A stretch of DNA of 63,659 nucleotides, filler included. It is 7 parts of 7 records of this genome, joined end to end, with 100 filler letters (N's around TTAATTAATTAA, not from the genome) between each part and the next. Parts side by side here need not be neighbours in the genome. Positions count along the whole stretch, not along the records: positions 49,294 to 55,429 come from SRR31147125_15419; 6 more parts are not named here. One strand, 5' to 3'. Made by a program: the position numbers and the translations under genes. Positions 5,749 through 55,429 of the stretch are shown piece by piece (position 1 is the stretch's first letter; each line of letters starts with the position of its first letter). The notes below the pieces were generated by a model. The model was given only the letters and a program-made list of their open reading frames with translations. It was not told the origin of the DNA and did not search any database.

Positions 5749-6894
5749 ATGAAACTCTTTTTCTTTATTGTTTGTGTTGCCATTCTGGCTTCGTGTTCTT
5801 CAAAGTTTAATCCCGAAATTACTGTTAATGATATAAAAGAAGATATCAGTTATCTGGCTTCAGATTCGTTAAAAGGACGAAAACCCGGAGAACCCGGAGG
5901 ATTGCTGGCAGCAGAATACATAAAACAAAAATTTGAAAATGCAGGTTTGCAATTGCTTTTCGAAAATGGATTTCAGCCGTTTAATTTGGTTGCTTCGGCT
6001 GAATTGGGCGATGGAAACAGCTTGAAAGTGGGAGAGGATTCGTTTTCTCCTAAAACAGATTTTTTACCCTATGCTTTTTCTGCAAATACAAAAGTGAATG
6101 CCGACGTTGTTTTTGCCGGTTACGGAATTGAAATAAATCGCGACACACTAAAATGGAATGATTTTAATGGAATTGATGTTGCCGGAAAATGGATGCTTGT
6201 TCTTCAGGGCGATCCGGATATGGAAAATGCCAACAGTCCGTTTCTTGAGTTTTCGAGCGAGCGAACAAAAGCTTTAACCGCTTCGGATAAAAATGCAGCC
6301 GGAATAATTTTAGTTGCAGGCCCCGGTTTTAGTAAGACAGATGAACTTTCGAAATTGTTTTTCGATAAAAACAGTAGTCGTTATTCTATTCCGGTATTGC
6401 AGGTTACACGCAAAGTGGCAAATAAAATTCTTGCTCAGTCGGAAAAAACGATAGAAGAACTTGAAAAAGAAATAATAGATAGAAAAGAGAGTCCGAGTTT
6501 TGAAACAATTACCAGCGTTGAGGTAACGGTGAATGTATTATTAAAGGAAACTACCACCCAAAATGTTGTAGGTTTATTACCCGGAACCGATGATAGTTTG
6601 AAAAACGAATATATTGTAGTTGGTGCTCATTACGATCATTTGGGAATGGGAGGCCCGGGGTCCGGTTCGCGTGCAGTAGATACTGTTGCCGTTCACAACG
6701 GTGCCGACGATAATGCTTCAGGAACATCAGGAGTTATCCAGGTAGCCGAAAAGATGGCTTCAGAAAAAAGTAATAAACGAAGTGTAATATTTGTGGCCTT
6801 TGGTGCCGAAGAAATGGGGCTGGTTGGCTCGAAAGAATTTACTGCCAAACCACCGGTTGATACAGAAAAAATGGTAGCCATGTTTAATTTCGAT
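5749..6894 (+). CDS. M28 family aminopeptidase with PA domain, lipoprotein (3' truncated by contig end)
   Basis: GAHYDH, NGADDNASG, AEE.GL.GS and NFD metal-ligand motifs; lipobox LASC; start taken at MKLFF. Confidence 0.9.
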
Positions 6895-11435: not shown

Positions 11436-13214
11436 TTACTTCATTACCGGTACCAGTTTCACTTCTTTGAAATACATCAGATTGTCTTTTAAAGCGGTTT
11501 CCGGTCTTATAATGAGGGTGTTCTGTCCGACTTTTAAATCCAGTGTACCTAGCGAAAATGTTTTGTAATCGTACCAGTCACCTGTTGATTGAACAGAAGA
11601 AATAAGTGATTTTTCACCGACAGTCACAGCATATTTTTGGCCATCCCATTCCGGATTGGCTGCATACGTTATTTGTACATCAAACAAGCCAGGATTGCTG
11701 ATTTTAAAATTCCACGATATGGTATCATCAGGTCCGGTCCACTTTGAAATATGGAATGCCCCTTTGCGATTAAATCTTTTAACGGTTTTTCCACTGGTTA
11801 TGGCTTCAACATACTGCAGGTCCACAACACCATCTTTTTGCTGTTCGACAACAACAGGATCCACTTTGGGGCTTCCATCTATTTCCAGCACAATAACCGT
11901 GTTTGCCTTATCCACAGGTTTTTCCGGCACTGTTATTAAAATACTATTTCCGTTTTGCTTAACTGGTAACGTTTTATTTTTATCCAACAAGAGATAAGCT
12001 TTTTTTACTTTATTTTCGAGTGTGCTCAATTCGAGGATACCGGTTGCAGGCCAGTTAAACACATGTAGATATAACTTTTCACCTTTCACTGTGCACCGCC
12101 CCCACGGAAGGTTGTAGAAGGGACTGGGAGTGGTTCCATAAATACTCTCTGCGTTATCCTGCATCCAGTCCCCCACCTTGTTTAATATAAAAACGGATTC
12201 CTGTGGTATAATGCCTTCTCCGGTTGGTCCGACATTCAACAAATAATTACCGCCCTGACTGACAATTTCGACCAATCTGTGAATAACCTCTTGCGGACTT
12301 TTCCATTCTTTATCATATTTACTATATCCCCATGTCTCATTCAGGGTTTGTGGTGTCTCCCAGTATTCCTCTATACCTCCAATGGGCATACCATTGTCGT
12401 TCATATTCTGGTAATCACCCAGTAATTCCTTGTTATAATTTCCAACCCGTCCATTTACCAGGCATTGGGGCTGTAATTGTCGTACCAGAGAGGCAAATCT
12501 TCTGCCCTGTTCCTGGGTATACATGCCTCTGTCAAACCAGATGAGTCCCAACGGACCATAACCGGTCAGGATTTCTTTTAATTGGGGTATTGATTTTTCC
12601 TCAAGATAGTTGTCGAAATCTTTTTGTGTAACATCATAATCCCAGTCATTTCCATAAGCATCCGGATGATCCCAGTCTTCGCGATGCGAGTAATAAAAGC
12701 AGAATTTTATCCCTTCATCCCTGCAGGCGTCAGCCAGTTCTTTCATCGGATCACGTTTAAATGGAGTGGCATCGACTATGTTATAGTCACTGACATTTGA
12801 ATGGTACATGGCAAATCCATCGTGATGTTTTGCCGTAATGACCAGATATTTCATGCCCGTGTTTTTTGCCAGACGAACCCACTCTTTTGCGTTAAAATCG
12901 ACTGGATTGAATTCGCTGGCCATATGACGATATTCGGTAACCGGAATTTTCAGTTTTTGCATAATCCATTCGGCATTTTCACCAACCGCCACTTTTTGAT
13001 TTTTCCATTCCCCGGCCAGTTTTGAATAAGGACCCCAATGAATAAACATCCCAAACTTGGCATCTTTGAACCACTCGAGACGATTCTCTTTTTGCAGACT
13101 TGAATTCTGTTCAACAGATTTTCCACAGGAGGATAGCAGGATAATAGAGACATACAAAAACACAAAACAATAAATTTTGACGTTCATAACGATCTGATCT
13201 CCCCTCCTTTTCAT
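11436..13214 (-). CDS. Alpha-L-fucosidase (GH29) lipoprotein with C-terminal CBM-like domain
   Basis: WFKDAKFGMFIHWG, TAKHHDGF, IWFD, GGNYLLNVGP. Confidence 0.92.
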   Translation of the reverse strand: MKRRGDQIVMNVKIYCFVFLYVSIILLSSCGKSVEQNSSLQKENRLEWFKDAKFGMFIHWGPYSKLAGEWKNQKVAVGENAEWIMQKLKIPVTEYRHMASEFNPVDFNAKEWVRLAKNTGMKYLVITAKHHDGFAMYHSNVSDYNIVDATPFKRDPMKELADACRDEGIKFCFYYSHREDWDHPDAYGNDWDYDVTQKDFDNYLEEKSIPQLKEILTGYGPLGLIWFDRGMYTQEQGRRFASLVRQLQPQCLVNGRVGNYNKELLGDYQNMNDNGMPIGGIEEYWETPQTLNETWGYSKYDKEWKSPQEVIHRLVEIVSQGGNYLLNVGPTGEGIIPQESVFILNKVGDWMQDNAESIYGTTPSPFYNLPWGRCTVKGEKLYLHVFNWPATGILELSTLENKVKKAYLLLDKNKTLPVKQNGNSILITVPEKPVDKANTVIVLEIDGSPKVDPVVVEQQKDGVVDLQYVEAITSGKTVKRFNRKGAFHISKWTGPDDTISWNFKISNPGLFDVQITYAANPEWDGQKYAVTVGEKSLISSVQSTGDWYDYKTFSLGTLDLKVGQNTLIIRPETALKDNLMYFKEVKLVPVMK

Positions 13215-49293: not shown

Positions 49294-49340
49294 AAAACAG
49301 GATACCTTATGGCATCCTATTCAATGCTCCAAGATGACAT

Positions 49341-49631
49341 CTACTGAGCCTGATGCAACGGCAACGGATTCAATATCCAAAACCTTTCATCATCCGACCA
49401 GACAAACAAACCGGAAGGTTTAATTCCAGGTTTGCCAAAATCCTCAACCGGAATACAGTAATGACAATCAAGGCCATTTTCAAGTTTGGCAATGATAGCC
49501 AGTTTGGGGAGTTCATTGTCCTGTTCGATTGATTCTATCTGTTCCGCGTTGATCAGCTGATACTGATGCGGAATGTTATCTTGTTTCTCACTGATTATTC
49601 CATATACATCTAATATAATGGGATTTTCCAT
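49341..49631 (-). CDS. Hypothetical protein
   Basis: GGAGG RBS, 96 aa. Confidence 0.7.
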   Translation of the reverse strand: MENPIILDVYGIISEKQDNIPHQYQLINAEQIESIEQDNELPKLAIIAKLENGLDCHYCIPVEDFGKPGIKPSGLFVWSDDERFWILNPLPLHQAQ

Positions 49632-49648
49632 ATTGCCTCCATAAAATT

Positions 49649-49674
49649 AAAAAGGACACCCATTCGAGTGTCCC
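49649..49674 (-). terminator. Intrinsic terminator
   Basis: GGACACTC-gaat-GGGTGTCC-TTTTT on the minus strand. Confidence 0.7.
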
Positions 49675-49773
49675 ATCTGTTTGATCTTTCCTTGATTCAG
49701 GCTCAAGCAATCCTCAAACCCATATCCGATCTATTGAACAAATCAGAGTGGTTAAAACATCTAAGCATAAGCC

Positions 49774-50568
49774 TCACAACGTAAACTGGAAATCCAATCT
49801 TGAGGGAAGTCTGATTTTTGTTTTTGTCTCAGAAAAGACCGTCTCTGAGGCCTGTCCCAGTTGTGCTTCAATGTTTCGGATCTTTTCCTGCAATGCCAGA
49901 TAGCGTTGCACCAAAGAATCACTGACGTGATGCATCGACAGTTTTGTATTAAACTCATCATCTGACATCGAGATCAGGTCAAATTCTTCATTCATCTCCT
50001 CAGCCATTTTTCCCTTTATTTGTTTCAGGTCTTTGCATAAATATCCAAGCTCTGCTTTAAGCCTTCCCGCGTCAATAGCCACCTCTTCCATAAAGGGTGT
50101 GGCATGGACACTTTCCATTTCCTGAAAATCCTCACCGAGTCCATCTACATTAACTCCCACATCAGACAGGTACGTCGCTGTATCATCATCGATGAAAAGA
50201 TTCATTTCGTTAGAGTGAATATCGGTCAGAGGAGAATAATCATCGATCTTTTTTCTGTGCGCCAGAATTGTATCAGTAAACTTGTGTTCCAGAGCGATAT
50301 CAGCTGATGCTGTGGCATTGGAGGGAGTAAATGTTTTTAAAAGATATCTTTTGCCAAATGGATCATTGGGATTTTTGAAATTGCGGTTCAGTTCCTGCGA
50401 ATAGAAAATAACCGGATTTTCTGTGTCCGGATCCCGGCACAGTCTCAACCTGGCAGCAGTAAAATTCTTTTCATCTTCGACAGCATCTATTTTAAAATCC
50501 TCGATGTCGTTATCCAACCTTACGGGAACATCAATTATAACATTATCCATCCGCTTCCTCCTTCGCAA
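49774..50568 (-). CDS. Hypothetical acidic protein with coiled-coil C-terminus
   Basis: Likely start MDNVII after GGAGG, overlapping the clamp gene's stop. Confidence 0.7.
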   Translation of the reverse strand: MRRRKRMDNVIIDVPVRLDNDIEDFKIDAVEDEKNFTAARLRLCRDPDTENPVIFYSQELNRNFKNPNDPFGKRYLLKTFTPSNATASADIALEHKFTDTILAHRKKIDDYSPLTDIHSNEMNLFIDDDTATYLSDVGVNVDGLGEDFQEMESVHATPFMEEVAIDAGRLKAELGYLCKDLKQIKGKMAEEMNEEFDLISMSDDEFNTKLSMHHVSDSLVQRYLALQEKIRNIEAQLGQASETVFSETKTKIRLPSRLDFQFTL

Positions 50569-51627
50569 TGCGAATTGGCATGAGTAGATTCATGATGTCA
50601 TGATTGGACTCTTCTTCAACGATGACCGAAGCTGAGTTATTATCGTTATATTTCCATAATGCCTTGTCCCCATCTATGCCCTTTAATGCTTTTTCCAGAT
50701 TCCCCAGGTTCAAACCGATGTCGATTTTTTTATCAGCTATCACATCTATCGGCATCGAGGTTTCCCATCTTGTTTCATCCTCGCTGTTTTCAACCTCCAT
50801 TTTTAAAGCATCGCCTTTAATGTGAAAGATACTGCATAGACTTTTTTATCAGCAAAGGCTTTGGCAGCGTCGGCCAGCTTGAGAAATCGTTTTTTGTCAA
50901 CAGCGATAACACCCTCAAAGTCTTTTGGCAGAACGCGCTGGTAATTGGGATATGTGGATTCTACTTTCCGTGCATATATTTCGATGCCATCATCCAGGAT
51001 GAACTGAAAATACTCATCAGAGACCGATACAGCCACTTTGCTCTTTACAGCCCGAGGCAAAAGCTGTAATACCCGTTTCGGAATAATGCCTTCGAATTTT
51101 TCAAGTTCAAACTGTCCTTTCATATCTACATTTCGAATCAAACGCAAAACATGCCCATCTGTTGCACATGATGTAAAGAATCCATTCTGATTGATGTAAA
51201 CACCATTTAATGCCGGACGCATAACATCTGTGCTGCAGTAGGGAAGCTGGCTGTGCAGCAGTTCGATGCCTTCTTTGGACCAGGTGCCGATGCCGTGAAA
51301 GGTTTGTTTTGAGAAAAACGGATACTCTTCCATTGCGGTGGATGGAAAAGAGACTGCCTTTTCATCGTAAATGATTTTAACACGATTTTCATCCGACAAG
51401 TCAATCTCAAGATGTTTCGGTCTTGATTTCAGTACCGTTTTTATTATTGCTAATGGAATGAGAAAAGCTCTTTTGTCATCGACTTTCATTCTGGCTGTTA
51501 TCTCCAGATCCGTAGCCATGACAAAACCATGCGAGACAGCGACATTTTTGATCACATCGATGGTTGATCTCCGTGGAATAATTTTCTCTGCGATAGGGAT
51601 AAATTTGATAAATTCTTGTAACATCAT
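50543..51627 (-). CDS. dnaN: DNA polymerase III beta sliding-clamp homologue (frameshift near 50816-50818)
   Basis: ATDLE, RPALNGV, ATDGH.L, IIPK, YPNY.RVLP, C-terminal LMPIR; ~361 aa once the two ORFs are joined; no dnaA/recF/gyrB nearby. Confidence 0.88.
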
Positions 51628-51644
51628 CGTTTCCTCATAAATTT

Positions 51645-52469
51645 TTAAGTTTGACCAAATTTTAATGTTGCCATGGGACATGAGCTATTGTATGGCTTTT
51701 TACTACAAAACGACTCAGTGCAATGTCCCTGATCATCCAGCAATACGGACTTTCCCTTGTATTTGCAGTAATAATGCAGATGTCCATGACTCAAAAGATG
51801 CTTTTCATACTTTTCAAAGAAATCCTTAAAACCTGTGATGCCTGTAGATTGTTTTTGATACTGCGAATAGGCTTGTGAAAGTTTTTCAATGAGCTCATCA
51901 TAGACTTTTTTCGATTCAATGGATTTGATCCATTCCGGCAAGTACGGATTATTCAGCATTCGCTGTTTTACATTGTCTGCATTGGTATCTGATTCTTGCC
52001 TGATAATCGATACACCTTTATTATGAGACGATTTTGCAGGCGAGGAGAATAAGGAAAACTGCTGAGACATTGGGACATTGAGACTTATTGTTTGAACAAA
52101 CTCGTTGATGCCAAGAATGAGCCTGTTTAGCATATCGATGGAATCATCAATGGGTCCAGGTTTGTGGTTTTGCTTTTTTTCCTCGGTTTCAACATAGGGT
52201 TCATCTTTTAACACCAGGTCAATGTCGTCGATGTTTAAATCTAGATTGGCCGGCAGGACAAACTGAACCTCACCGATGAGGTGTTTACCATCTTTATTAT
52301 TGGTGACAACAGGTAAGGAATTGTGTCCGGATGTAAAACCTTTGGGAAAAAGGATCTGCCATTGTTTGGTTAAAAGCAGATCATTGTGCTTTTTCTTGAG
52401 TATATCGATCCAGTTATTGATTTCGGTTTTGATTTTTTCGATTATTAGCTGCTGGTAATCCTCACTCAT
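51645..52469 (-). CDS. Hypothetical protein with QFSLF clamp-binding-like motif and Cys/His-rich C-terminus
   Basis: 274 aa; QFSLF in a Ser/Pro linker; HLHYYC...HC..FC...C tail. Confidence 0.75.
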   Translation of the reverse strand: MSEDYQQLIIEKIKTEINNWIDILKKKHNDLLLTKQWQILFPKGFTSGHNSLPVVTNNKDGKHLIGEVQFVLPANLDLNIDDIDLVLKDEPYVETEEKKQNHKPGPIDDSIDMLNRLILGINEFVQTISLNVPMSQQFSLFSSPAKSSHNKGVSIIRQESDTNADNVKQRMLNNPYLPEWIKSIESKKVYDELIEKLSQAYSQYQKQSTGITGFKDFFEKYEKHLLSHGHLHYYCKYKGKSVLLDDQGHCTESFCSKKPYNSSCPMATLKFGQT

Positions 52470-52732
52470 AATGCCTCCAGTGCCTTTAACTGATTGGATT
52501 CTACATCTGTAGAATTATATGGATTAAAATTTATCTCTGCCTCAGCACCGCAATCGATGCATTTTAGGCCCTGCGATAGCTTTTGATTAACCAGCTTTTC
52601 CTCAATTGATTCAAGCTGTTTTATATGTAAAATGGAAATCGTGCCGTCTTCATTAAACCTGAATGTGGCCCGAACCCACAGGGGAATGATGAATTTTTTA
52701 TTATTACCGCATTTCGGACATAATATTTTCAC
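52466..52732 (-). CDS. Small Zn-ribbon protein
   Basis: CPKCGN...CIDCG. Confidence 0.75.
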   Translation of the reverse strand: MKILCPKCGNNKKFIIPLWVRATFRFNEDGTISILHIKQLESIEEKLVNQKLSQGLKCIDCGAEAEINFNPYNSTDVESNQLKALEAL

Positions 52733-53657
52733 GTGACCTCCTTTTTGTATTGTTAAAGCATTTTGCGCAGCTGATGTTTTCTGGTTTGAGCTTTTTGTTT
52801 ACAATGTCCTGTGAGATTGTCGGACGTGATATTTCAGCCAGACCAGACTCAGTCAATTCAATGACACAATCTGTTTGCACATCTAATAAAAAGTCCTGGT
52901 GATTTCCGCAGGTTGAGCATTTGGGGATTTTAATTCCGGTTGGCAACTCCATTTCAATGATGGATTCTTTTTCATCGAACATGGCAATGTCCTTTGGCCT
53001 GTAAACAAGCCATGGAATGTAGATGTAGGCGTTTACCAGAGCTATCTTGCATATCAGAGGATGAATGTCAACGCCATGCAGATTCAAAGAATAATTTGAC
53101 GCGTACAGAAGCATAACTCCAGTGCCGCAGCATGGATCTATTACAGACTTATTTTTATGTATAGGTTCCGGATCCCCGCCAAATGTCATTCTGGTCATCA
53201 TTTCCACGACTGATGGGGGTGTGGGAAAATAACCGGATCCGCTGCCAACCTGATGATCAGAGGCAATAGTGGCAAAGTGATCTCCTGGTTCTTCATAGAA
53301 AAGCCACAGGCAGAATGTCCGATACCAATAATCATCAGTCTTTTCGTCAATTGACGGAAACTTGAGATTATTTTTATAATTGAATCCCCATAATATCCAG
53401 TCAATGAATTTTTCAAATACATTGGAATGAGAGTGCATCGCATAGTTTAGACATTTTTCAATGTTTTTCCGGACTTTTTGACTGTTAGCATCAGGTTGAA
53501 AGCGAATGTAAGGAATGGGAGCATCAGGGATTTTATCATCGATGACCGCTTTCATCCAATAGTCCCATCTGTTAAAGAACATCTGATCCAAAGCCATTAA
53601 ATAGGGGACTAGCCAACCCGGACGATCTTTTGTAGATCTTATGTCAGAATCTTTCAT
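52704..53657 (-). CDS. N6-adenine methyltransferase-like SAM-binding domain fused to a Zn ribbon
   Basis: GYFPTP (motif X), DPCCGTG (motif I), GVDI (motif II); no NPPY/F; CSTCGN..CAKC. Confidence 0.8.
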   Translation of the reverse strand: MKDSDIRSTKDRPGWLVPYLMALDQMFFNRWDYWMKAVIDDKIPDAPIPYIRFQPDANSQKVRKNIEKCLNYAMHSHSNVFEKFIDWILWGFNYKNNLKFPSIDEKTDDYWYRTFCLWLFYEEPGDHFATIASDHQVGSGSGYFPTPPSVVEMMTRMTFGGDPEPIHKNKSVIDPCCGTGVMLLYASNYSLNLHGVDIHPLICKIALVNAYIYIPWLVYRPKDIAMFDEKESIIEMELPTGIKIPKCSTCGNHQDFLLDVQTDCVIELTESGLAEISRPTISQDIVNKKLKPENISCAKCFNNTKRRSRENIMSEMR

Positions 53658-53680
53658 TGAAAGAAGCTCCTTTAGATAAT

Positions 53681-53713
53681 AAAAAAGGCCGCAGACAAAA
53701 TTGCCTGCGACCT
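53681..53713 (-). terminator. Intrinsic terminator
   Basis: GGTCGCAGGCAA/TTGTCTGCGGCC plus T6 on the minus strand. Confidence 0.8.
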
Positions 53714-53740
53714 CATTGTTCCCCCGTGTAAAAAAGTTAT

Positions 53741-54274
53741 TTAATCATCATCGCCATAGCCGGCATCACGAATGAGTTCAGTTAGTGTAATAGCGTAATG
53801 CTGCCGGACCTGCTCAAGCCCATAGTCATAGTGAGGGCACATAGTAAAACAATACTCTTCATCCACGTCGCCGCTGTTTTGTTTAATGCATTCCTCGCAC
53901 AGCTCCCGAAGCAGATCCTCTTCTATCCAGTTTCCACAGTCCCAGCAGCCCGGACAGCCAAGATTGTAACAAGTCTCGATGGCATTATCATGCATATCCA
54001 GTTCAGCGTTACCGCAATTGGCGCAATGAAAAATATTACGGCTCCCCTCAATCGATCTATTCAGCATACGAGAGATGTTTTTTTCAATGGCGGCCAATAT
54101 TTTCCTGGTTCTCATGTTATCCACTTCAACAGCGAGACCATCATCGAGACATTCAACTATGTGACGCAGTCTGAGATCCATTTGCCATTGATTTGTGTTA
54201 CCACAGTAATGGCAATAGAGATTATTTATCGCATCCCTGCGTTCCTCAGGCGCGAATACTTTAACCTCTCTCAT
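53741..54274 (-). CDS. Cysteine-rich multi-Zn-finger protein
   Basis: CHYCGN..CANCG, C..LGCPGCWDC, CEEC, C..MC.HY. Confidence 0.75.
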   Translation of the reverse strand: MREVKVFAPEERRDAINNLYCHYCGNTNQWQMDLRLRHIVECLDDGLAVEVDNMRTRKILAAIEKNISRMLNRSIEGSRNIFHCANCGNAELDMHDNAIETCYNLGCPGCWDCGNWIEEDLLRELCEECIKQNSGDVDEEYCFTMCPHYDYGLEQVRQHYAITLTELIRDAGYGDDD

Positions 54275-54513
54275 TTTTGCTGCAATGTATTGACAACAAC
54301 CTTGGCCAAAGAGGCGATGGCCGATGCCACCTCAGCTGTTAGCTGCAGCTTATTAGAGATTGCTTCGGTTTTTTTATCTTTGATCTGCCGCCTGATATCA
54401 TTGCCAAGCAGATAGACATTGGATGTCAGAATCATTGAATTACTCAACAGGCTGGCCATTTTGACCATCGCCTGTGAATTGATATTGATTCTCAGTTTTG
54501 TCCTATCTTTCAT
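54271..54513 (-). CDS. Hypothetical small helical protein
   Basis: 80 aa; ATGA-coupled to both neighbours. Confidence 0.65.
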   Translation of the reverse strand: MKDRTKLRININSQAMVKMASLLSNSMILTSNVYLLGNDIRRQIKDKKTEAISNKLQLTAEVASAIASLAKVVVNTLQQK

Positions 54514-54653
54514 ATGTCCCTCACACGTGGACGTAGAATGAGAAAACGTAATGACTCTACGATGAGCACACCGATGCCCATCCAGCCAATTACTTCTTTG
54601 GCTTTTCGGATATCATCGTCGTAGACAATGAATCCATTTTCTTTTCTTTCCAT
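54510..54653 (-). CDS. Small membrane protein (47 aa), not in the ORF track
   Basis: GGAGG RBS; MERKENGFIVYDDDIRKAKEVIGWMGIGVLIVESLRFLILRPRVRDI; ATGA overlap with the next gene. Confidence 0.6.
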   Translation of the reverse strand: MERKENGFIVYDDDIRKAKEVIGWMGIGVLIVESLRFLILRPRVRDI

Positions 54654-54880
54654 AGAGTTGGTTGACCTCCATCAATAAAATTGTTAACAAGTGTAATAGC
54701 CGCTTCAATTAAAGCTTTCTGCCTTTTGTATTTGGCATAATCACGCGCAAAGACGATGCCTGCGCCAACGGCCAATGTTCCGATGGTGAGACTGCCAAAG
54801 GTAAAGATCACGTGCCGAAGAGAAACCTCGATGATGTGATCATCTGATTCAGGCGGAAGTTTTGATTTGTTATCACTCAT
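54590..54880 (-). CDS. Small single-TM protein
   Basis: 96 aa; hydrophobic VIFTFGSLTIGTLAVGAGIVFA followed by basic residues. Confidence 0.65.
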   Translation of the reverse strand: MSDNKSKLPPESDDHIIEVSLRHVIFTFGSLTIGTLAVGAGIVFARDYAKYKRQKALIEAAITLVNNFIDGGQPTLWKEKKMDSLSTTMISEKPKK

Positions 54881-55026
54881 GCGATACCTTTTTGTTCATC
54901 ACCATGTACAGCTTTGATAATCTGCATCGTTGTAAACACAATTCCAAAAATCATAGAGCCAATCTGAGCAACAAGCTCGACCTTGTCAGAAAGATTCGAT
55001 GTTTTCGGGGGATTTACTTTTTCCAT
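54877..55026 (-). CDS. Small membrane protein (49 aa), not in the ORF track
   Basis: AAGGAG RBS; MEKVNPPKTSNLSDKVELVAQIGSMIFGIVFTTMQIIKAVHGDEQKGIA; ATGA overlap. Confidence 0.6.
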   Translation of the reverse strand: MEKVNPPKTSNLSDKVELVAQIGSMIFGIVFTTMQIIKAVHGDEQKGIA

Positions 55027-55030
55027 GTTA

Positions 55031-55291
55031 TCACTCCTTTTTAAAAGTTAATTTATTACTGCTAAAGGATAACCCACTGACCCGATAGGGGATATCGAGG
55101 CCAGTGAGATGAATAGTCATCGTGTCAGGTTTGATTTTTAATACAGGTGAGTCATTGGGGTGGGTAATTTTTAAAACTTTGCTGCCTTTCATTGTAAGAA
55201 AGGGCCTATTGTTGACGTTGATGTAAAAGATGAATTGTTCTTTTTTAGAGCTGTCCGGTTTAATTCCGAGTTCAATCTCATCAGGTAAAAT
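55031..55291 (-). CDS. Hypothetical 86-aa protein with probable ATT start
   Basis: AAAGGAGGTGAT SD; ATT 8 nt after GGAGG; in-frame TAA immediately upstream; frame open to TGA 55031. Confidence 0.5.
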   Translation of the reverse strand: MLPDEIELGIKPDSSKKEQFIFYINVNNRPFLTMKGSKVLKITHPNDSPVLKIKPDTMTIHLTGLDIPYRVSGLSFSSNKLTFKKE

Positions 55292-55368
55292 TTATATCAC
55301 CTCCTTTAGATTTGATAAATAAGGGTACCTATTTTAGTTCTTATACCGGGAAATAAGGAAAAATAAAC

Positions 55369-55384
55369 GTTCTCAGCTGAGAAC
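55369..55384. promoter_or_regulatory. Perfect 16-bp palindrome, possible operator
   Basis: GTTCTCAGCTGAGAAC upstream of the first gene of the minus-strand cluster. Confidence 0.45.
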
Positions 55385-55429
55385 TTTCAAAACTACAAGT
55401 ACCGATAAAGCGTTGCTCTTGACACCCCC

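Follow-up and report, generated by a model that had tools for sequence, protein, structure and literature searches.

Sliding clamps serve as hubs for the enzymes that replicate and repair DNA, and some phages and plasmids encode a clamp of their own. Clamps also act as a platform for non-polymerase factors, e.g., phage T4 gp45 with gp33 and gp55, the TnsE-clamp targeting of Tn7, and the Zn-binding clamp adaptors of the YabA type. Late transcription in phage Mu is a further clamp-using accessory system, as described in a preprint (bioRxiv 10.1101/2025.01.04.631326). Here we analyse a stretch of DNA of 63,659 bases (hereafter the window), in which one contig, SRR31147125_15419 at positions 49294-55429, carries an array of co-oriented genes that includes a divergent homologue of the beta sliding clamp, DnaN. 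An original prediction, made from the sequence alone, had taken this array for a mobile-element operon built around a private sliding clamp, and more precisely for an early or leading region of an integrative and conjugative element (ICE), a plasmid or a prophage. We find that the array is a discrete, recombinase-linked, horizontally moving unit of about 6.4 kb, and that its clamp is, judging by profile and tree comparisons, a real three-domain beta-clamp of a divergent family, other than the housekeeping dnaN.

A scan of genome contigs gave two further loci with this arrangement, both in metagenome-assembled genomes (MAGs), namely L001 on a 3.64-Mb contig and L002 on a 6.5-Mb chromosome. The genes D, E, F, G, H, I, J, the clamp gene, M and N (Table 1) are colinear between the window and both loci at 37-66% identity (tblastn) and, together with a C49-like open reading frame (ORF), they make up 11 genes. 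Such synteny in two other genomes means that the arrangement is not due to chance. The original prediction had proposed looking for longer contigs with the same synteny as a check, and L001 and L002 are such contigs, so the genes do co-occur elsewhere. Between L001 and L002 there is a single aligned block of 6,429 bases at 84% identity (L001 6081-12494, L002 6073-12459), outside which the two loci are unrelated. This block begins about 35 bp upstream of a gene for a 180-aa serine recombinase, composed of an N-terminal Resolvase domain and a C-terminal HTH_7 domain (E 1e-46), and ends about 160 bp past N. The cassette in L001 has a GC content of 44-45%, against 26-34% in most of its flanks. In the window only the last 11 residues of the recombinase are present and the remainder is found on no other window contig; the earlier statement that no integrase gene is visible nevertheless has to be amended, since bases 55396-55428 (minus strand) encode this C-terminus followed by a stop.

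The genes also appear to keep company beyond these three loci. Among the 34 cassette-type clamp clusters whose longest contig is at least 7 kb, at least 15 are equal in contig size to a listed match of M (11) or of H (4 more), where equal size is taken to mean the same contig and where 120 of the 222 M matches and 120 of the 133 H matches were listed. The source names of the homologues span Marinimicrobia, Brocadia, Calditrichae and a Hodarchaeales MAG, in a patchy distribution.

The clamp itself was compared with canonical DnaN at several levels. Its 84 homologous matches comprise a distinct family of about 360 amino acids (approximately 77 matches) and seven canonical-like DnaN proteins at 23-27% identity. 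The intact clamp of L001 aligns with TIGR00663 over positions 10-366 of 367, scoring 106.5 bits against an equivalog cut-off of 137.65, and the clamp scores 51.8 bits against NF004184, for which the cut-off is 443, i.e., below what defines a housekeeping DnaN. The family profile can be aligned over its entire length with solved beta clamps in the PDB (E 1e-35). The motifs ATDGH-L, YP-F/Y and MP-RL, which we take from general knowledge of clamps to belong to the peptide-binding pocket, are kept and their columns are near-invariant in the family: scATDGHvLr, kyPdfervIP and imPirl align with vATDGHRLa, rFPDYeaVIP and vMPlRL of the solved clamps. The clamp phylogeny that the original prediction had named as a check points the same way, as a branch of length 1.72 (SH-aLRT 100) parts 67 cassette-type clamps from the seven canonical-like DnaN; this was a quick tree of 74 rows, with matches shorter than 340 amino acids left out, including the fragments P0003, P0045, P0055, P0062, P0071 and P0073-P0077. 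Searches of phage and plasmid records with the clamp returned only dnaN genes, at no more than 25% identity, and no second dnaN occurs on the six other contigs of the 64-kb window, the rest of the genome being outside its reach. That the gene stands outside a dnaA-recF context, as had been proposed, cannot be read from the window, where the contig lies between linkers, but it holds in L001 and L002.

In L001 and L002 the clamp is a single ORF (370 or 384 aa), whereas the window copy is divided over two ORFs in different frames, one of 292 aa at 50803-51681, whose true start is probably the Met at 51624, and one of 85 aa at 50543-50800. Pfam and PHROGs place domains I, II and part of III in the longer ORF and the remaining part of domain III in the shorter, and the matches to phrog_947 (E 2e-31) span positions 8-284 and 295-367 of 368, respectively. 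The frame changes at a run of six A, and the corresponding proteins of P0003 (89% identical), L001 and L002 read through the break point as ...KKSQFSIFHIKGDALKMEVEN... An in-frame stop or an alternative genetic code was considered for the split and rejected, as the two ORFs are in different frames and no stop reassignment joins them. The description of the gene as a full-length dnaN homologue is thus right by homology, but the gene is not intact. Because the clamp gene is frameshifted, the window copy of the cassette would be either inactive or mis-assembled at the homopolymer. As a separate observation, P0003, P0076, P0242 and P0286, which are 68-94% identical to window proteins, are shortened or frame-shifted at differing positions, which suggests error-prone assemblies or decaying copies in the lineage.

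In each of the three loci the last 8 nt of the clamp gene are shared with the gene for M, and M is the best-conserved protein of the unit. It has at least 222 homologous clusters, of which those listed are 55-66% identical with many invariant residues. The coiled coil that had been predicted is borne out by confident helices at residues 152-243, and C-terminal tails of the form ...DELFxI and ...DLSKFVL recur among 118 homologues. The family of J is small by comparison: a search of 1.84 billion proteins yielded 37 representatives, of which 19 had E <= 1e-30. Its QFSLF sequence, correctly noted in the original prediction, resembles the QxxLF consensus of the clamp-binding motif given in PMC12926913; the equivalent is QLSMF in L001, L002 and P0085 and QMQLF in P0092, always within the variable linker. 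Going by the sequences compared, QFSLF is a feature of a subclade. Matches of M, J, G and N to the sequences of solved structures were at chance level (E >= 0.17), the ESM Atlas gave at most 0.83 for M (DSHCT/MTR4, a lead only) and no usable match for J, and no consistent Pfam match emerged when every member of the M and J alignments was scanned.

Three proteins share a Zn-ribbon module with a split CxxCGN...CxxC pattern, in agreement with the three Zn-ribbon proteins first proposed. The module makes up I88 and is found at the C-terminus of H317 and the N-terminus of G177, and these copies are paralogous (I88 vs H317, E 6e-6; I88 vs G177, E 7e-4). The small membrane proteins of the original prediction correspond to C49, D96 and E47, each with one hydrophobic segment (maximum Kyte-Doolittle(19) 1.69-1.88). 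The 64 nt shared by the D96 and E47 genes (54590-54653) show the highest DNA identity to L001 (76.9%, compared with about 65% in other parts), which is what use of both frames would predict. No relative of C, D, E, F, J, M or N was found in Pfam, PHROG, NCBIfam, PADLOC, PDB sequences or the Atlas.

H317, which had been described as an incomplete N6-adenine methyltransferase (MTase), has 133 homologous clusters. Motif X (F-TP) and motif I (DPCCGTG) are conserved across 87 homologues, and motif X, motif I and the next helix align with HsdM structures (E 2e-5). The match to PF02384 (30.7 bits, cut-off 20.4) covers profile positions 20-99 only, i.e., about 80 of 311. The catalytic motif IV, (N/D)PP(Y/F), is replaced by a conserved Y-V-P-W-L in which P215 and W216 are invariant in 43 sequences. 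In the AlphaFold model (predicted local distance difference test, pLDDT, 88.7) a helical N-domain is followed by the strands 171-174 and 192-195 and then the Zn-ribbon, so that the seven-stranded Rossmann-like fold is incomplete, with two strands only. Foldseek found no match for this model at E <= 1e-3 in the PDB and BFVD; its best matches were HsdM and short phage MTases at a TM-score of no more than 0.48 (no more than 0.29 against the PDB). Because motif IV is replaced and only two Rossmann strands are modelled, H is an MTase remnant that is not expected to methylate.

H is the one cassette protein with distant relatives on plasmids, in 24 records (Paenibacillus 6, Bacillus 4, Nostoc 3, Stanieria 2, and others), of which seven are typed as conjugative and three as mobilizable. 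Their identity to H over residues 11-258 is 30-35%, and the best E-value is 1e-36. They share all signature blocks and likewise lack motif IV, and the Bacillota forms end directly past the PW motif. In the seven plasmid loci sampled (L003-L009) the relatives are about 280-390 aa long and annotated as N-6 DNA methylase, HsdM (type I restriction-modification subunit M) or hypothetical. A gene for DnaN, DnaX or a Y-family polymerase stands near the H relative in five of these seven loci: dnaN within 5-6 kb in two (P. peoriae, B. thuringiensis), dnaX in one (Chondrocystis), and a Y-family polymerase with YolD in two (B. mycoides, B. cereus). UDG-like genes, partition genes and a small serine recombinase occur in two of the seven loci each, and in the P. 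polymyxa locus the sole neighbour shown is of the PAPS-reductase family. No relative of a cassette protein other than H was found in the seven loci. By sequence, both plasmid DnaN proteins match canonical DnaN (E 1e-21 and 1e-32) better than they match the cassette clamp (E ~1e-6), and the association of the H family with a clamp gene therefore recurs with non-orthologous clamps. Of the independent hints of a functional link, this recurrence is the strongest. According to PMC8708921, genes described as of the N-6 adenine MTase type are carried in the establishment regions of pLS20-family plasmids.

The window consists of seven contigs joined by linkers of N44 + TTAATTAATTAA + N44, and the array at 49341-55384 takes up nearly one entire contig (6,136 bp, 40.7% GC). 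Since this contig stands between N-linkers, it has no physical linkage to the window segments on its left or right. The GC content of the window contigs ranges from 33.5% to 55.3% (the latter for segment 22443-34394), and this wide spread gives a heterogeneous-looking bin, so that inference from adjoining segments is unsafe. Every plausible gene on the contig is on the minus strand, with 13-14 co-oriented ORFs from 49341 to 55281, and five junctions are 4-nt ATGA overlaps (A30/B53, C49/D96, E47/F80, F80/G177 and I88/J274), matching the predicted picture of about 12 co-oriented and often ATGA-coupled genes. The prediction of a single operon did not hold up, as two hairpins resembling intrinsic terminators split the putative operon into at least two or three transcription units.

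Table 1. Features of the contig at 49294-55429 of the window, in order of transcription.
Feature	Position	Strand	Remarks
3' end of serine recombinase gene, 11 codons and stop	55393..55428	-	GVSRATLYRYL* = C-terminus of the 180-aa Resolvase + HTH_7 proteins of L001/L002; cut at contig end
16-nt perfect palindrome followed by T-run, terminator-like, after recombinase gene	55369..55384	-	
GGTATAAGAAC box upstream of gene array	55337..55347	-	One match in window, 0.01 expected
A30 and B53, window-only small ORFs	55031..55281	-	No L001/L002 counterpart, no Pfam match
C49, small protein with one hydrophobic segment	54877..55026	-	Similar small ORF in L001/L002 between recombinase and D, judged by eye
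D96, small membrane protein	54590..54880	-	L001/L002 counterparts 37-41% identical
E47, small hydrophobic protein	54510..54653	-	Kept in L001 and L002; gene overlaps D96 by 64 nt in another frame
F80, small protein	54271..54513	-	Present in L001/L002; no family match
G177, Cys-rich, N-terminal split CxxCGN...CxxC Zn-ribbon module	53741..54274	-	58-60% identical in L001/L002
Terminator-like hairpin, 13-pair stem and T-run, in G177-H317 gap	53685..53714	-	Hairpin at equal position in L001
H317, helical N-domain, MTase remnant and C-terminal Zn-ribbon	52704..53657	-	Motifs X and I, two Rossmann strands, no catalytic motif IV
I88, stand-alone Zn-ribbon module	52466..52732	-	Paralogous to H317 C-terminus and G177 N-terminus
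J274, two conserved domains and variable linker with QFSLF (residues 137-141)	51645..52469	-	Four invariant Cys in C-domain
Divergent beta sliding-clamp gene, split into 292 aa and 85 aa	50543..51681	-	-1 frameshift at A6 run 50842-50847; likely true start 51624
M, 258 aa from ATG at 50550, coiled coil, hydrophobic C-terminal tail	49774..50568	-	Gene overlaps clamp gene end by 8 nt
Terminator-like hairpin in M-N96 gap	49653..49674	-	
N96, last conserved gene of unit	49341..49631	-	

The GGTATAAGAAC box also precedes both the array and the recombinase gene in L001 and L002. It is possibly an extended -10 promoter element, a protein-binding site or a recombinase site. Copies of (T)GGTATAAGAAC lie at L001 6085-6100 and 6663-6680 with equivalents in L002, and the left edge of the L001/L002 homology coincides exactly with the first copy. 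The stretch occupied by A30 and B53 can alternatively be read (55031-55282, minus strand) as one open frame of 83 codons, with an ATT start eight bases past a strong AGGAGG.

The left flank of L001 holds ROK kinases, YdjC, a pentapeptide protein and an rve fragment, and the right flank holds a type I HsdM fused to a PIN-like domain, HsdS, a NucS/YhcG-like nuclease and GmrSD. This HsdM (L001 12610-15039) carries PF18476 (E 6e-4) as its C-terminal PIN-like domain and, with the HsdS, the NucS/YhcG-like PDDEXK protein and the GmrSD that follow, forms a dense defence island. In L002 two IS3-type elements and a Mutator-family transposase lie on the left, and Cas6, an unassigned 512-aa protein, Cas7 (DevR), Cas5, Cas3, Cas4 and Cas1 on the right; these form a complete-looking type I CRISPR-Cas operon (L002 12709-20602) that starts about 250 bp past the end of the cassette block (12459). 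Pfam scans of 14 L001 and 16 L002 flank ORFs found no relaxase, type IV secretion system (T4SS), capsid, terminase or large integrase in the unit or its flanks of about 6-8 kb. A comparison of 13 proteins with PADLOC-DB 2.0 gave only the generic MTase region of H (mad2, 1.5e-9), the others matching short stretches at E >= 2e-4 and the clamp not at all; H scored 22.8 bits against the NCBIfam MAD2 model, where the cut-off is 720. Rfam gave no match at E <= 0.1, and a full-text literature search found no description of such a clamp-centred cassette.

We lean, tentatively, towards the cassette being a DNA-transaction module that serves mobile DNA when it deals with a host (in establishment, repair or anti-restriction) and not housekeeping replication. 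Clamp loading, every protein-protein contact and the biological role are our own reconstruction here. In this model a compact cassette of about 6.4 kb, with a small resolvase-type serine recombinase followed by 11 co-oriented genes around a private clamp, would have its clamp put on DNA by the host clamp loader. The conserved peptide-binding pocket of the clamp would then tether cassette-specific partners to DNA. J is a candidate partner through the QFSLF/QLSMF linker motif in the subclade of the window, and so is M, given its gene's putative translational coupling to the clamp gene and its conserved hydrophobic tail. The Zn-ribbon modules of G, H and I, together with the MTase remnant of H, may supply recognition of DNA or of a cofactor, not methylation.

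Several observations weigh against this proposal. On the side of the proteins, only three of the 16 full-length proteins that represent the J family have the linker motif Qxx[LM]F, where shuffled linkers would be expected to give 0.8; the model of M has a mean pLDDT of 53 and its conserved N-terminal half, below 50, is not confidently folded; and library scans recognised no polymerase, helicase, nuclease or ATPase in the unit. As for mobility, a 180-aa resolvase-type recombinase is not a typical integrase, and at the edges of the unit there are no terminal repeats or attachment sites beyond the GGTATAAGAAC box and a 9-nt palindrome around the recombinase ribosome-binding site. Neither the contig DNA (blastn) nor protein M (tblastn) finds a match among 50,697 phage and 72,556 plasmid records, and the plasmid neighbourhood counts come from 7 of the 24 records and carry no background control. 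Lastly, both loci with visible flanks are chromosomal and adjoin restriction-modification, GmrSD or CRISPR-Cas genes, a context that would fit host-defence cargo at least as well. It is because both chromosomal copies lie in such defence-rich neighbourhoods that we place second the possible, though rather unlikely, explanation that the cassette protects its host as mobile anti-phage or anti-plasmid cargo. The clamp would then be a sensor or scaffold on invading or replicating DNA, the Zn-ribbon and MTase-remnant proteins would discriminate DNA, and M or the small membrane proteins would execute the response, e.g., by abortive infection. The defence genes on one side of each flanked locus (HsdM-PIN, HsdS, the NucS-like protein and GmrSD in L001, Cas genes in L002), with insertion sequence elements opposite, speak for it, as do the patchy distribution, the foreign GC content, the three small hydrophobic proteins and the fact that the best PADLOC and NCBIfam match of H is the MADS MTase, though far below cut-off. 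However, these are two contexts (n=2), and defence islands also gather mobile elements and anti-defence genes; moreover, PADLOC gave no significance beyond the generic MTase region, no effector enzyme is recognisable, and the plasmid relatives of H lie among replication and repair genes.

The original view of the contig, as a piece of a larger ICE, conjugative plasmid or prophage taken from its early or leading region, now appears quite improbable. While the clamp matches the phage processivity-factor family phrog_947 (E 2e-31), relatives of H sit on 24 plasmids (seven conjugative, three mobilizable), and the contig ends hide the local flanks of the window copy, in L001 and L002 the 6.4-kb block is bounded by unrelated DNA with no relaxase, T4SS, capsid or terminase within about 6-8 kb, and its sole recognisable mobility gene is of the resolvase type. 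The blastn and tblastn searches of phage and plasmid collections found nothing, and only H has relatives in the seven plasmid loci. What stands of that prediction is the conserved, moving unit on a clamp other than the housekeeping dnaN, in view of its colinearity at two unrelated sites, its GC content, the TIGR00663 score and the tree branch; the plasmid relatives of H lend partial support in spirit. Two readings of single features are less probable still. The split in the clamp gene could be deliberate and control clamp production, either by programmed -1 ribosomal frameshifting or by phase variation through slipped strands at the A-run, and indeed the break falls exactly in the homopolymer A6 (50842-50847) and a -1 shift restores homologue-like residues (...KK-S-L-C-S-I-F-H-I-K-G-D-A-L-K-M-E-V-E in the window, ...KKSQFSIFHIKGDALKMEVE in P0003). 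We consider this very unlikely, as full-length homologues (most of the 84 matches, L001 and L002) are single ORFs of about 360 aa in which the shift site is not conserved, and the zero-frame codons GAT AAA AAA GTC are not a canonical X XXY YYZ heptamer. Close relatives are also broken elsewhere (clamp P0076 after residue 113; M homologues P0286 after residue 166 and P0242 near residue 213; P0003 without its N-terminus), and such scattered positions point to random indels, from assembly error or decay, and not to a programmed event. Even less credible is that the recombinase is a DNA invertase and the array an invertible, phase-variable segment. The recombinase is indeed of the resolvase/invertase type with a weak full-length match to the Mpi invertase (73.6 bits, cut-off 272), the window contig breaks near both array ends, and in L001 a 17-nt inverted repeat, 88% complementary, brackets the array at 6679-6695 and 12363-12379. 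Yet this repeat is short, with 49 such pairs listed in the same 7.2 kb, L002 has a degraded left arm, and the window contig lacks a corresponding pair; as the repeat is kept in neither, the invertible segment was rejected.

Returning to the cassette as a DNA-transaction module, its interest lies in the pairing of a private clamp, without a polymerase, with proteins of unknown fold, an apparently disabled MTase and small membrane proteins, in a set that is widespread (M at least 222, H 133 and the clamp about 77 clusters, under source names from several phyla). A clamp in such company and with no polymerase points to clamp use outside replication. When hosts and mobile elements are in conflict, the cassette clamp could provide a platform from which DNA is surveyed or interfered with. 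It is conceivable, if doubtful as matters stand, that the cassette represents a novel type of conflict system. A dedicated clamp paralogue would there be loaded on DNA as a sensing or tethering platform, either as immunity against invading replicons or as a counter-measure of mobile DNA. Its partners would be M, J, G, I and N, protein families without known relatives, and a recognising but non-methylating MTase remnant. The truncated MTase-like proteins form a distinct mobile-element family, and their recurrence near genes for clamps, clamp loaders and translesion polymerases makes the link to the clamp testable.

Set beside known systems, the cassette matches no described bacterial system. 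Bacterial DnaN (TIGR00663; PF00712/PF02767/PF02768) and phrog_947 copies have the same three-domain architecture and pocket motifs as the cassette clamp, but the latter is only about 22-27% identical to canonical and phage DnaN, scores below the equivalog cut-off, has its own long branch in the quick tree and is frameshifted in the window copy. Unlike DnaN, it has no adjoining dnaA or recF and no polymerase or clamp loader beside it in L001 and L002. H shares motif X, motif I and the next helix with the gamma-class N6-adenine MTases (HsdM, PF02384) and with the MADS MTase MAD2, but differs in having motif IV replaced by Y-V-P-W-L and in passing from two Rossmann strands to a Zn-ribbon. The MTase-like proteins of Paenibacillus, Bacillus and cyanobacterial plasmids resemble H in their signature blocks and in having lost motif IV, whereas the Bacillota forms have no Zn-ribbon, and in the plasmid loci sampled no other cassette protein lies nearby. 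The recombinase of the unit has the Resolvase + HTH_7 architecture of Tn3-type resolvases and Hin/Gin-type invertases; in contrast to those units, the cassette has no transposase partner, recognisable res or hix site or conserved terminal repeats, and its recombinase falls far below the cut-offs of the NCBIfam recombinase models. With the T4, Tn7, YabA and Mu systems it has the platform idea in common and no sequence relationship of partners, for the cassette brings its own clamp and its own set of proteins.

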